A stretch of 64,000 bases of DNA from Dictyostelium discoideum (GCA_000004695.1 CM000152.2:5888001-5952000), one strand, 5' to 3'; shown: positions 33,147-42,200, counted from the first letter of the stretch. Notes: generated from the sequence alone by a model not told the origin. Translations and numbers: made by a program.

Positions 33147-36100
33147 ATGAACAATAAAAACACCCATAATAATTTAGATAATAGTTCAGATAATAATAAT
33201 ATTAATAATAATACTAATAATAATAATAATAATAATGCAAACAATAAAATAAATTATAAAAATAAAGATAATAAAAAGGTGGGATTAGGCAAAATCCACT
33301 CCCACTTAAATATAAATATATCACCAGAGTTATCAAAGCTCATAGTATCAACTGAAGAAAGGAAATCACCACTTCAACAACAACAACAACAGTTATTTGA
33401 TAAAAATGATGATAATAGTAATTTAGAAATATCTTCATCAACTTCATCAACTCCTTCAATTACACCAAATCAAAAACAACAACAACAACAATCGACCTCT
33501 AATACAACTACCACCACTACTACAACTACATCAACATCATCTTCTTCGAATTATGGTTATGGTTATAACAGTAATGATGATGATGATGATAATAATAATA
33601 GTAATAATAATAGCAACAGTAATAACGAAAATACTAGATATGATAATAATAATAGTTTAAGATCATCATTAGTAACATCATCAACATCTACATTCACATC
33701 AGCTTCTTCATCGTCATATTATTACTCTGGATCTGAAACTGGTTATTATAATCCTCAAAATTTATATCTAGAACATGTTTTGAATGATTTTAATCAACAT
33801 CATCAACAACAACAACAACAACAACATAATAGTAGTATTAATACAACATCAGCAACAATTAATAGTAATAATATAAATAAACACAATTTTACCTTACATA
33901 TAAATAATAATAGTAATAATAATAGTAATAATAATAATAATAATAATATTAATATTAATAATATTAATAATAATATTAATATTAATAAACAAAATAATCA
34001 AATACCATTTAAAAATGATATAGTTGATTTTAATAATAGTGAACAATTTGGATGTCCAATTGATTGGAACGGATATTTTCAAAAATTATTATTATTACCA
34101 GAAGAGGATTTAGATGAAAAATATGAAAAGTATAAATCATTATCAGCATTAAGTAAAGATTTCATTCATACAGCCATCACCTATGGTAAAATAATCATTG
34201 AAGAAGCATTTATAGATAATAAATTTAAAACCATTAGACCGGTCAAAATCGGTGGAAAGGCGGGTGGTGAGAAATATGCATACAATGGTGTACTATTTAA
34301 GTTTGCTCAAGATTGGGTGAAAATCTATTCATCAGATGAATTCTCAATGAAATCAGCAAATCATGAATTAAAGAGTGTTATGCGTTATTTTGGTTGTGAT
34401 GGTTTACATGTACCTTTGATGGCATTATTAGATTATCGTGGTTTTCGGTTAGTAGCAATCTCATTCTTACCAATCTCAAGAAAGAATGAAACCATCGTTT
34501 ATGGTTCCTATAATGCTGGTCAAACCGTTTATGCTTCGAATGAAGATTTTAATCATAAAATGAAATTAGCTGCTAAAAAATTAAATATCAAAGGTCATGA
34601 AGCTGGCATTGATGATTCAAAATTTCTTTATGGCCCTGCTGATATTGAAGGTCATATAGGTTTAGATGGTTTATTTTATGTTTTAGATTTTGCAAGAGTT
34701 TATCCACCAACAATTGATTCAATTTTAAAAACAACAAATAATAATAATAATAATAATAATAATAATAATAATAATAATAATAATAATAATAATAATAATA
34801 ATAATAATAATAATAATAATAATAATAATAATAATAATAATAATAATAATAATAATAATAATAATAATAGTAATAATAATAATAATAATTTAAATAATAG
34901 TAGTAATAATAATAAAGTTAATTTAAAAAGTGGAATATCAAATTGTAAACCAAATGGTGAAGCATATCTTTATAAATTATTTAGACCAGAATTTGTACAA
35001 AATTATCATATACCATTAAGTAGTGATGCATTTTCACCATTCTCTGTAAAAGATTCAAAATCAATGCAAGAGAATAATGATGAAGTTAGAGAGGCATCAA
35101 ATTATTTATTTTATACTTTAATTCCTAAAATTTCGAAATGGATTGATAGTAATGCTTCAAATATTGATTGGCATTCAAGATTAACTGAAATTATTCATAG
35201 AGAAGGTATAAATGTGCGTTATCTTGGTTTAATACGTCAAAATATTTTAAAATATCAAGAATGTAATAGTAATAATAATATAAATTATAGCAACAATACA
35301 ATTAATTTAAGTAATAATAGTAGCAGTAGTAGTTTTAATTTATATAATAGTAATAGTAATAGTAATAACAATAATAATAATAATAATAATTTAAATAGTA
35401 ATAATAATGATTATAATAAATTATCAAATATTTTATTATCAGAAATTATAGCAAGAGTACTTAAAAATATTTTACGTGATGAATTACGTGAAAAAATGAA
35501 AACACTTCATTCTTTAGAAGCTAATCCATATATTCAAGTTGTTATAAATTTTTTTAATATAATTTTAGGTGATCCAATTGAAAGTCATAAATTATTATGG
35601 ACAAATATTAAAAAAGAAATTGAAAATAGATTTGAAAATACATTAACAGAATTTGAAAAAGATAGTAAATATCAATTAATTGAATCAATTAATTTGTATC
35701 ATGTAATATTTAGAATTCAACAAATGACAGGCATAAAATTGGGTGAAGCATCAATGATTGAATTTAAAAAGGATCCAAGATCATTTAGAGTGGTTTTATC
35801 GGATATAATTAGTATGGATGTTAGAGTTAAACATATGAATATCATTAGTTTGGCAGAAGGTAATGCCCTATCATTGCAATGCATGAAATTGGGTGGTAAA
35901 GAACCACCAGTTGGCTCTGAAAGATTGTTTAAATTGGCAAGTAATAAATTTGAAGAAGCAATTAGGTCAACACCAGATAATAAAGATATACTAAATGAAT
36001 ATGCAACAGTGTTGAAACAATTATCAATGTCTGTTGGTAGAAATAATTGTTTAATGTATTTAGAGAAATCTTATTCAAATTTCATACTATCTCAAAATCA

Positions 36101-42100: not shown

Positions 42101-42200
42101 TTTAAATGATAAATGGTGTCGTTATGGTGCAAATTGTAAAATGTCTCATGATGAAGGTGAAAAAGAGAGAATCTTAAAAAAAAATAATAAAAAACAATAA
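33147..42200 (+). CDS. Giant intron-less ORF (3,017 aa): CLU domain, TPR-like region, Cys-containing leucine-rich repeats (F-box/LRR type), UBC (E2) catalytic core, large C-terminal domain and CCCH zinc finger
   Basis: CLU domain at nt about 34000-34720: LLDYRGFRLVAISFLPI..TIVYGSYNAGQTV and GHIGLDGLFYVLDFARVYPP, compared with human CLUH LLDCYRGLRVVAQSVLPGIL..SIIYGSIDFGKTV and GNDGRHYILDLLRTFPPD. LRRs at nt about 37440-39050: LDLSNCKIK, LDISYCKLINDVT, LQLSGCNLITDTT, LSLDKCQLI, LNLYGCKKVTDETL. UBC core at nt about 39484-39900: DLLTWHANIVAPDGSPYEGAVFHIELKFPPNYP...HPHIHDGGRICLDIL. CCCH finger at nt 42088-42150: CNFFLNDKWCRYGANCKMSH (C-x7-C-x5-C-x3-H). There are many (AAT)n tracts, up to 47 Asn. 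Confidence 0.85.
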   Translation: MNNKNTHNNLDNSSDNNNINNNTNNNNNNNANNKINYKNKDNKKVGLGKIHSHLNINISPELSKLIVSTEERKSPLQQQQQQLFDKNDDNSNLEISSSTSSTPSITPNQKQQQQQSTSNTTTTTTTTTSTSSSSNYGYGYNSNDDDDDNNNSNNNSNSNNENTRYDNNNSLRSSLVTSSTSTFTSASSSSYYYSGSETGYYNPQNLYLEHVLNDFNQHHQQQQQQQHNSSINTTSATINSNNINKHNFTLHINNNSNNNSNNNNNNNININNINNNININKQNNQIPFKNDIVDFNNSEQFGCPIDWNGYFQKLLLLPEEDLDEKYEKYKSLSALSKDFIHTAITYGKIIIEEAFIDNKFKTIRPVKIGGKAGGEKYAYNGVLFKFAQDWVKIYSSDEFSMKSANHELKSVMRYFGCDGLHVPLMALLDYRGFRLVAISFLPISRKNETIVYGSYNAGQTVYASNEDFNHKMKLAAKKLNIKGHEAGIDDSKFLYGPADIEGHIGLDGLFYVLDFARVYPPTIDSILKTTNNNNNNNNNNNNNNNNNNNNNNNNNNNNNNNNNNNNNNNNNNNNSNNNNNNLNNSSNNNKVNLKSGISNCKPNGEAYLYKLFRPEFVQNYHIPLSSDAFSPFSVKDSKSMQENNDEVREASNYLFYTLIPKISKWIDSNASNIDWHSRLTEIIHREGINVRYLGLIRQNILKYQECNSNNNINYSNNTINLSNNSSSSSFNLYNSNSNSNNNNNNNNNLNSNNNDYNKLSNILLSEIIARVLKNILRDELREKMKTLHSLEANPYIQVVINFFNIILGDPIESHKLLWTNIKKEIENRFENTLTEFEKDSKYQLIESINLYHVIFRIQQMTGIKLGEASMIEFKKDPRSFRVVLSDIISMDVRVKHMNIISLAEGNALSLQCMKLGGKEPPVGSERLFKLASNKFEEAIRSTPDNKDILNEYATVLKQLSMSVGRNNCLMYLEKSYSNFILSQNHIGLMELGDLLMNLYCSGFNSDQDKNNDLWSIKDSLSILSEKCYSSISYWGLINLNSTLLNFNQNYNNNNFNNNNNNNNNNNNNNNNNNNNNNNSSSGGGNITNSMSSTSLYSSLLSIDVASRKFQISNSVRCLAFLKLGNLILQISQQKKSIQLFEESGKYFREAFNLVLSTYNNNNNQLNNNNNNNKNNNNNNNNNNNNNNNNNNNNNNNNNNNNNNNNNNNSSSNNNNNDNDNDDNTNDNNKEYFGENEKVEDEINENNEKEIDDEDKINLQRKLPNIPTDILYKSNIHIAIWSLLFLDFNNQIMTTTNSIEFPKIKTNLSKISNKIINVGNNDIMDFEFIEFLSRYLIKSESISMIKSIVLRKYQFNSFGYNSILPSPIALVKSLTSFINLTKFDISYSFSKSIDNSNNNSSNNNNNNLNNNNNNNNNNYYYNNSINEDIFCNIVSQLKRLKSVNISNTNIQIKGIICLFTNCKELLRLKARRCRIFANEFEHLLILPFLKQKILFTNFLCLNLSCTEITTIQSISKIFPNLKHLKLSHCQRIHSYELQLFTDNLGYFYNSNNGRNLINNNNNNNNNNNNNNSNNNVIVPINGKLEKIKLSGCTDLNDESIGKLLKKTIMTLKSFTLCTSKISHSPLINYLKLIENQKHQQQLGLPSRVIIEHLDLSNCKIKLISSSSQSILKPFQLDQPIPLSVFSSSIKYLNLSHTGLPKENVPILLSYCLNLEILLFNYNEQEFNIISSGGGGGSSSLSNSGGIINNNNSNNNNFKILLNSLKLIRIELNGSTFSSLFFKEIISKSSLTLKHIGVSGCAGIDFSFFETLCNKTKITTRLESLDISYCKLINDVTTELFIPNCKMLKSLQLSGCNLITDTTVHCIAMNLHHLVHLSLDKCQLIHSLISINSISCPNLKFVDLSFSENISDQSCQIILELVHLKALNLYGCKKVTDETLRKCNNSQSLRFLTLGLNKTSNTAIEKLKFENQSLNIILSAGISSSSLSSFNSSSSSSFLSPLKLSNSNSDFTNNNNNNNYNSLLHSQNVPPPPLPLSSLTSSSSSSSSFSSSSLPSTPIPIVQTIVPTIVPITITTPTATKISPNTTIIQQQPIQQQPIQQQKEEKEIIIPITTMKSLMTDLKNLTKDPIQFANAQPLDNDLLTWHANIVAPDGSPYEGAVFHIELKFPPNYPAAGPSGVSLTPLPHPHIHDGGRICLDILSDFQTYFQGQQGLSSTGWSSAYTVHTILLQMQTFLVSLESDEDYPIQEYLQKIPNAIQFSKYFKCSTCGHTSFDPFPTIKGYIPPELTEQDIINFNNQNNNNNNNNQNFPLSPSPSTVSISHYQHHNDHHNHQEQQQQQQEIVQDKSLINTTITTTTTTTTNTNSNLLSSSSSSPPTIIINNNEYNEKLKEEIEKDYIKSIKQELFCFHTRVSYEEDTLGIGISIVDKKGKIDEIKCSFDLLSLTAFNQGVRNSILKEQFTHWLPLYLNQQHGETAWKCLESAIVDILHSKKFSPDLASQFLCIAMNSICVQMMKGAVHASIRLLEGYCSFHQLFVQLVKRYPDLLAEINKKIYNFIYIPEHRTKKLTSALGEFLPLLTVSDYSWEDVSRVYIDENFDRNVFWVLRRHPEFGITEPNPIIDSNRPSCTFDVTQVSIRLLMFHVYFLKNVARPNGASLETISQSYDRLMGRPPTHVRDNLQKEVKEIMRITTWSQFFNKIGIPPPDEIGLIEWLRKSVVNSFEKKYHFKIQKSKLMETYELQQQQQLQQQQQQQQEQLKYPQQQTQLQQLSLQLQKQQQQQLQQQQYHQNTFSTTIVHNQFEPLSNSTSSTPNRSPTLDKNNKRNRNNNNDNKNNNEDDEDEIDFTGFNLLLSPESHLTSPILQSPSSPFPSRLVWSYNSQLPKIDSMSLNENDQSLFPPLPSKPINNKRVITTSLPQPPSTNYNNINNNNNNNNNNNNNNNNNNNNNNNKAPYGNNNNNNYNNNKAPYGNNNNNNYNNRVRVCNFFLNDKWCRYGANCKMSHDEGEKERILKKNNKKQ

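Follow-up and report, generated by a model that had tools for sequence, protein, structure and literature searches.

Enzymes that unite the functions of ubiquitin-conjugating enzyme (E2) and ubiquitin ligase (E3) in one polypeptide, the E2/E3 hybrids, are informative on how ubiquitin is transferred without a separate E3. To our knowledge, such hybrids are rare, UBE2O and BIRC6 being the known examples. Both are very large chains in which a UBC core is accompanied by substrate-binding regions, and they share the concept of a self-contained ligase with the protein described here. In Dictyostelium, about 30 E2s were counted in a survey, UbcB alone having been characterised (PMC5666861). The present protein is encoded in a 64,000-nt stretch of the Dictyostelium discoideum genome (GCA_000004695.1 CM000152.2:5888001-5952000, referred to as the window) by a complete, intronless open reading frame (ORF) located at positions 33147-42200 of the + strand and corresponding to 3,017 aa plus a stop codon. 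It combines a CLU domain, leucine-rich repeats (LRRs) of the cysteine-containing type, a UBC core, a domain resembling the E3 module of UBR4 and a CCCH zinc finger. This giant protein is, on a modestly favourable balance of the evidence, a single-chain E2-E3 hybrid ubiquitin ligase belonging to a family conserved in Amoebozoa.

The E3 module of UBR4 consists of a hemiRING holding one zinc (C2HC ligands), packed on a bundle of 11 helices named UZI; the hemiRING binds UBE2A/B, whereas a Gly-Gly element of the UZI modestly activates the ubiquitin-charged E2 (E2~Ub) (PMC10873205). According to Barnsby-Greer et al. 2024, this module has no fold relatives besides UBR1-3 (PMC10873205). In the giant protein, a domain of about 330 residues (aa 2400-2727, 40344-41327, + strand), called here the C-domain, stands behind the UBC core. 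It has no Pfam match, the search of the segment aa 2384-2800 giving nothing usable, and NCBIfam returned no match on the entire protein. The same region is the best-conserved part of the chain, with 37-46% identity to relatives from Balamuthia, Acanthamoeba and Arcella, whereas a basidiomycete relative is about 29% identical. Its AlphaFold2 (AF2) model, computed from an alignment of 14 sequences, reaches a predicted local distance difference test (pLDDT) of 93 and a predicted template modelling score (pTM) of 0.90, and shows a small RING/U-box-like beta/alpha subdomain followed by about 13 helices arranged in a UZI-like manner. When this model was compared with the PDB using Foldseek, only two significant matches were obtained, and both are the UBR4 E3 module: 8B5W (E 9e-6, TM 0.65) and 8BTL_A. 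The match recurs with a second model. That the C-domain adopts the fold of the UBR4 hemiRING-UZI module is thus well supported at the level of predicted structure, and from this fold match the giant protein appears to bear a UBR-type E3 module right behind its own E2.

The C-domain shares its fold with the UBR4 module (PDB 8B5W, 8BTL) and with the RING-UZI/cap-helical regions of UBR1-3, whereas sequence identity is only about 12% and no similarity is seen at the level of hidden Markov models (HMMs). The RING-like part is also shorter, spanning about 68 aa where UBR4 has 114, and C2HC ligands are not found at equivalent positions. A further difference concerns the E2, which UBR4 recruits from solution and which is covalently fused upstream in the giant protein. 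This UBR4-like domain gives the label of E2/E3 hybrid a real basis. The preliminary description of the locus had already pictured a self-contained recognition and conjugation enzyme, a reasonable idea but an incomplete one, since the UBR4-like module had been overlooked.

By analogy with UBR4, the hybrid would function in a few steps. E1 would load ubiquitin on Cys2195 of the UBC core. The tethered UZI-type module would then bind its own UBC~Ub and activate it modestly, as the UBR4 hemiRING-UZI does with UBE2A~Ub. The LRR solenoid, the CluA-like module and the CCCH finger would choose the substrates, plausibly components of RNA-protein complexes. We infer both this cooperation of E2 and E3 within one chain and the nature of the substrates from the domain content.

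Several observations weigh against such a hybrid. No link to UBR4 is detected at the sequence level, the Pfam family of the UBR4 C-terminus, which we take to be PF13764, giving no match at E <= 1. When PDB sequences were searched with the C-domain profile, no UBR4 chain came up, the only match being a noise-level one to dynamin (E 0.09). Nor are the C2HC ligands that hold the zinc of the UBR4 hemiRING recognisable in the RING-like subdomain, in which the sole invariant Cys is C2406 and the near-invariant His is H2408. Directly behind the UBC core, a CxxCxH knuckle (C2264/C2267/H2269, 39936-39953, + strand) is invariant in a 10-sequence alignment (A3), but it is absent in about one third of the family, CxxC being found in 64 of the 101 UBC-bearing members. 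The joint AF2 model of the UBC core, linker and C-domain (pTM 0.56) does not confidently dock the E2 against the E3 module. Finally, the Asn of the HPN motif is replaced by His in the UBC core (HPH). In view of these limits, zinc binding by the C-domain and activation of the E2 are proposed here as properties that the domain may have. The CxxCxH knuckle lies 137 aa upstream of C2406/H2408. Together with C2406-x-H2408 it might form a single zinc site; its covariation with H2408 is not significant (62/22/7/7; Fisher p = 0.11, phylogeny uncorrected). A UBR box is likewise missing, no UBR-box family being found by Pfam on the whole protein.

The UBC core extends over aa 2116-2262 (39492-39932, + strand), with HPH at 2185-2187 and a predicted catalytic Cys2195 (nt 39729-39731). 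UQ_con scores 91-94 bits in the Pfam scans and, on the whole protein, is placed at aa 2116-2245 with E 6.6e-26. The first His of HPH and the Cys are 10 residues apart (H2185 to C2195), a spacing identical to that of UBE2D, and the active-site stretch aligns without gap to UBE2D. The first His, the Cys, a downstream Trp and further core residues are invariant in the family alignment. The conservation of an HP(N/H) motif and of the catalytic Cys had been pointed out in the preliminary description, and this reading holds. UBE2W is an active E2, although a small and single-domain one unlike the giant protein. The HPH variant is present in UBE2W too (HPHVYSNGHICLSIL; PDB 2A7L, 2MT6), and HPH can thus be regarded as non-canonical yet compatible with activity. 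The UBC core is therefore predicted from its residues to be catalytically active. Were it instead a dead module resembling ubiquitin E2 variants (UEVs), binding ubiquitin within a protein that would be a non-enzymatic scaffold, the replaced Asn of HPN, an SPA loop changed into SSA and a UQ_con match that halts at profile position 117 of 140 would be in line with it. However, UEVs lack the Cys, whereas here neither the Cys nor the HP motif varies in the family alignment, and the active UBE2W carries HPH as well, so that a dead module is a very improbable explanation.

By sequence, the UBC core is overall closer to UBE2D-type E2s than to UBE2W and stands outside the UBE2O/BIRC6 subfamily. An active giant E2 comparable to UBE2O and BIRC6 had been suggested earlier; the intact core with its Cys agrees with this suggestion, whereas the subfamily assignment does not, and the domain located after the UBC core had escaped attention. 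A 12-residue insertion had also been reported between the YP and HPxI elements. This claim has to be withdrawn, as the stretch concerned, FPPNYPAAGPSGVSLTPLPHPHIHDGGRICLDIL (NYPAAGPSGVSLTPLPHPHI), is gapless when compared with UBE2D-type E2s and corresponds to a normal strand and loop. The real insertion, of about 13 aa (aa 2200-2216), is found after Cys2195, in CLDIL-SDFQTYFQGQQGLSSTG-W, at the Cdc34/UBE2G loop site, and is predicted to be disordered in the joint AF2 model.

The position of this insertion bears on another way of reading the architecture, in which the UZI-type module would, like that of UBR4, recruit a second, free E2 (e.g., the Rad6/UBE2A orthologue). Priming or chain elongation would be left to the giant protein's own UBC core, making up a two-E2 machine. 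The loop behind the Cys is the site used by UBE2R/UBE2G for chain building, and the linker between both domains, disordered and of low complexity in the giant protein (aa ~2302-2398, 40050-40340, + strand; pLDDT 25-39 in the joint model), is long and allows movement, as family members have 33 to 888 aa between the UBC core and the C-domain. The binding of another E2 is nevertheless only a conjecture, and the strict co-occurrence of the C-domain with an N-terminal UBC core is more simply explained by a partnership within one chain. Such a two-E2 machine is rather improbable.

This co-occurrence was examined in 160 analysed members of the family. A UBC core was detected in 102 of them, always N-terminal of the C-domain and never C-terminal, the members devoid of it being mostly short fragments. 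As the C-domain follows the UBC core wherever both are detected, it is likely to be functionally coupled with the E2. The same observation limits the model favoured in the preliminary description, namely a stand-alone giant E2 of the UBE2O/BIRC6 kind whose LRR, CLU and CCCH parts recognise substrates and whose UBC core transfers ubiquitin directly, the domain behind it being a scaffold or localisation module without any E3-like role. This model is in agreement with an intact UBC core, with the substrate-binding-type domains present in the same chain, with hemiRING zinc ligands that are not conserved and with the lack of confident intrachain docking. It does not account for a domain standing behind the UBC core in every member in which both are detected, nor for a UBC core that does not belong to the UBE2O/BIRC6 subfamily, and it is considered unlikely, without being negligible. 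The reading as a single-chain E2-E3 hybrid is thus retained in what follows.

All these arguments suppose that the ORF is one gene. In-frame stops are found directly 5' of its ATG. The window is AT-rich, with a guanine-cytosine (GC) content of about 0.23 over the 64 kb, in keeping with a dictyostelid, and the probability of 3,017 stop-free codons occurring by chance at GC 0.23 was computed to be about 1e-125. An identical 3,017-aa product is annotated in the NCBI assembly GCA_054883475.1 (chromosome record CM142509.1, 6.43 Mb). As stated in the preliminary description, more than 15 (AAT)n tracts interrupt the ORF, 17 tracts of at least 5 units being counted. Long poly-N tracts separate the domains, and the ORF could in principle be a gene-model artefact, in which at least two neighbouring genes, one for CLU and one for LRR-UBC, are read through in frame across (AAT)n tracts. 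Such a situation seems to be found in the annotation of Acytostelium subglobosum, where a 746-aa model with CLU and eIF3_p135 and a downstream 1,653-aa model with LRR, UQ_con and CCCH lie 95 bp apart on one strand (locus L002 10001-17627, DF837589.1; the 746-aa model is SAMD00019534_081630). However, the annotated boundary falls within the eIF3_p135 domain, and a 67-nt intron, GTAACG...CACAG (GT...AG, L002 12264-12330), was overlooked in the annotation. Once this intron is spliced out, the frame continues from ERDPYVDLSTHVDIYYIFVRIQNMTGIKL to LAEGNALSLQCM, a stretch that parallels residues ~815-900 of the giant protein in colinear order. The tblastn matches of the Acytostelium locus are also colinear, from aa 300 to 2725. 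Since the boundary lies within a domain and is bridged by an intron, both Acytostelium models represent one gene.

The same domain order is found in other Amoebozoa as well as in environmental and SRA-derived sequences. A word-indexed protein search gave no self-match, and none of the proteins it returned exceeded 1,125 aa; the full-length relatives were obtained through genomic loci and an exhaustive profile search. The latter identified three full-length proteins, P0164 (2,331 aa), P0218 (2,367 aa) and P0236 (2,017 aa), which display CLU, eIF3_p135, LRR, UQ_con and the C-domain in that order, P0164 additionally having a CCCH finger. P0236 is KAH3759897.1 from the archamoeba Pelomyxa schiedti and bears the database name 'Histidine kinase A'. 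The variosean amoeba Soliformovum irregulare supplies a Trinity transcript (P0253, 1,841 aa) whose match is colinear all the way from the CLU domain to the C-domain; as it is a single transcript, the fusion is spanned by one mRNA in this organism. SRA/Logan contigs of a single organism, built from public sequencing data, have a GC content of 50% and numerous short introns; they also carry CLU, LRR and UBC on one strand. The Acanthamoeba contig stops within the gene and was not counted for the fusion. With the same order in one Soliformovum transcript and in three full-length proteins, together with the chance probability given above, an artefact is extremely improbable. The ORF at 33147-42200 is one gene and the fusion is not an artefact, in agreement with the single 3,017-aa ORF proposed initially and supported by both the ORF itself and the order conserved in relatives.

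As the fusion is present in a dictyostelid, an archamoeba and a variosean, it arose before dictyostelids, Archamoebae and Variosea diverged. The search for orthologues called for in the preliminary description has thus revealed the same architecture in all three groups, and the protein is not a one-off fusion. The gene is conserved among Amoebozoa, and its database entries carry either no name or a wrong one. The label 'Histidine kinase A', seen on orthologues and on CLU paralogues, is also carried by P0021 and P0036 (Pelomyxa, Balamuthia), no kinase domain being detected, and was probably transferred through low-complexity similarity. Literature searches retrieved no paper on a CLU-UBC fusion, nor on a UZI-type module outside UBR1-4/SIFI, and a search of one Dictyostelium Skp1-interactome paper gave nothing on the giant protein (PMC9485057).

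The N-terminal part relates the giant protein to CLU proteins, of which CluA, CldA (SH2+CLU+TPR), CldB and ComB have been described in Dictyostelium (PMC2906285). A region of low complexity, rich in N, Q, S and T by composition of the translation, comes first (aa 1-295, 33147-34031, + strand); no Pfam match was found in it when scanning the whole protein, and orthologue alignments start only at about aa 295. The CLU domain follows (aa 306-523, 34062-34715, + strand; PF13236, E 5e-62, 210 bits), with 70% identity to the Acytostelium orthologue. Next comes the eIF3_p135 or CLU-central domain (aa 678-848, 35178-35690, + strand; PF12807, with E 8e-12 for the entire protein and 8e-15 for the segment by itself), broken by a poly-N tract, and then a helical TPR-like region (aa ~930-1045, 35934-36281, + strand) that is kept colinear in orthologues with 30-56% identity and in which the TPR_17 match is weak (E 0.026 in the segment Pfam scan, under the cut-off). 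Searching PDB sequences with the CLU/eIF3_p135 region returned poly-N noise only.

This succession of CLU, eIF3_p135 (CLU-central) and TPR-like helices is shared with CluA/CLUH/Clu1 (TIF31), CldA, CldB and ComB. However, by Pfam, the giant protein has no detected CLU_N, GSKIP-type N-terminal domain or C-terminal TPR array, and is not a CluA orthologue. The LRR, UBC, UZI-like and CCCH parts, which make up its C-terminal two thirds, are also without counterpart in the described CLU proteins. Identity with CldA or CldB is ruled out, as these are proteins of 145 and 164 kDa and CldB has no other domains. The giant protein is none of CluA, CldA, CldB and ComB, and its nearest relatives are amoebozoan paralogues and the orthologues of the fusion, rather than CluA. 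The statement that CLU domains are otherwise known only from proteins of the CluA/CLUH/TIF31 type does not stand, as CldA, CldB and ComB are published and amoebozoan CLU+eIF3_p135 paralogues are many. Animals and fungi have a single CLUH/CluA, and these paralogues (P0016-P0107) are far more varied, their partner domains including TPR arrays, SPRY, WD40-like domains and LRRs.

Between the CluA-like module and the UBC core, the LRR region (aa ~1440-1985, 37464-39101, + strand) is split by poly-N and Gly/Ser tracts. The Pfam scan of the segment aa 1440-2010 assigns it to LRR_4 (1.7e-6) and LRR_6 (5e-5), and a pattern search detected eight strict LxxLxLxxCxxI units with a period of 25-26 residues at aa 1791-1947; the Acytostelium orthologue bears LRR_FBXL15. 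The assignment to the Cys-containing LRR type made initially is borne out by LRR_6 and by these units. Such Cys-containing repeats of 26 residues (LRR_6, LRR_FBXL15) are shared with the FBXL F-box/LRR receptors of SCF ligases, but, unlike these, the giant protein and its orthologues have no F-box. Indeed, Pfam searches of the giant protein, whole and in segments, and of P0164, P0218 and P0236 did not find any, as had been noticed in the preliminary description.

At the other end of the chain, the CCCH zinc finger CNFFLNDKWCRYGANCKMSH (aa 2982-3001, 42090-42149, + strand) has the pattern C-x8-C-x5-C-x3-H, also found C-terminal in P0001, P0005 and P0164, of which P0001 is an orthologue from Soliformovum with a short linker. 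It scores 23.2 bits for zf-CCCH on the segment, above the gathering score of 20.5, and 19.8 bits, slightly below the cut-off, on the whole protein, in which CCCH families match at aa 2979-3002. Each of the four domains announced at the outset, CLU, Cys-LRR, UBC and CCCH, is therefore recovered by Pfam. Domains of RNA-binding type (CCCH, RRM, S1) recur across separate branches of the UBC-UZI-like family. Linking the giant protein itself to mitochondria or RNA is speculation.

This family extends far beyond the CLU fusion. Searching 1.84 billion proteins with a C-domain profile built from 14 sequences gave 2,992 representative clusters at E <= 1e-3, including 1,089 at E <= 1e-30, and a further 26 matches, mostly fragments, came from a third round of homologue searching with the profile of this domain. 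Sister architectures (P0109, P0110, P0120, P0143, P0145, P0148, P0151, P0152) comprise VWA+UBC+F-box+C-domain, UBC+F-box+C-domain, UBC+C-domain+LRR_6+RRM and AhpC+UBC+S1+C-domain. In a Balamuthia relative, an F-box is placed between the UBC core and the C-domain, and KAJ5071803.1 of Anaeramoeba ignava associates UBC and the C-domain with an RNI-type LRR and an RRM. Unlike in FBXL proteins, the F-box of the sister branches stands between the UBC core and the UZI-like domain and not ahead of LRRs; in such a linker, it would set Skp1 beside the E2-E3 cassette.

A broader proposal can be built on this distribution. The cassette of UBC and UZI-like domain may represent a class of single-polypeptide E2-E3 enzymes that is both ancient and widespread, with about 3,000 clusters in protists and fungi, in which a UBR-type module is tethered to its own E2 and shares a common origin with the UZI of UBR1-4. 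Lineages would have added F-box, VWA, LRR, RRM, S1, CCCH or CLU domains, the amoebozoan branch being dedicated to RNA-protein complexes or to complexes associated with translation and mitochondria. Taken as a whole, this proposal is tentative and falls short of an even chance.

Regarding the surroundings of the gene, a convergent neighbour at 42270-43709 (- strand), about 70 bp past the stop of the giant ORF, corresponds in the source record to a 552-aa protein of the beta-lactamase family (PF00144), and the upstream neighbour in that record is a PUA/Methyltrans_RNA protein. Three tRNA-Ser(GCU) genes of equal length are found on the + strand (10456-10538, 14870-14952 and 18902-18984) with a spacing of about 4.0-4.4 kb, which suggests either a unit repeated in tandem or elements that target tRNA genes. 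Further tRNA genes of the window are those for Thr (30532), Leu (49248, - strand) and Val (52506, - strand). Local GC peaks occur at 18001-20000 (0.35) and 60001-62000 (0.33), against about 0.2 elsewhere, and the second one overlaps an ORF of 1,100 aa on the - strand (59254-62556).

If the giant protein is indeed a single-chain E2-E3 hybrid, it would provide a natural covalent E2-E3 pair for mechanistic and structural study. It would also bring a functional annotation to about 3,000 protein clusters that are devoid of a Pfam domain in the C-domain region, and would hint at how the catalytic module of N-degron ligases arose in evolution. In the amoebozoan branch, CLU and CCCH domains would stand in one chain with a ubiquitylation machine, offering a testable handle on what the CLU domain does biochemically in the genetically tractable Dictyostelium.

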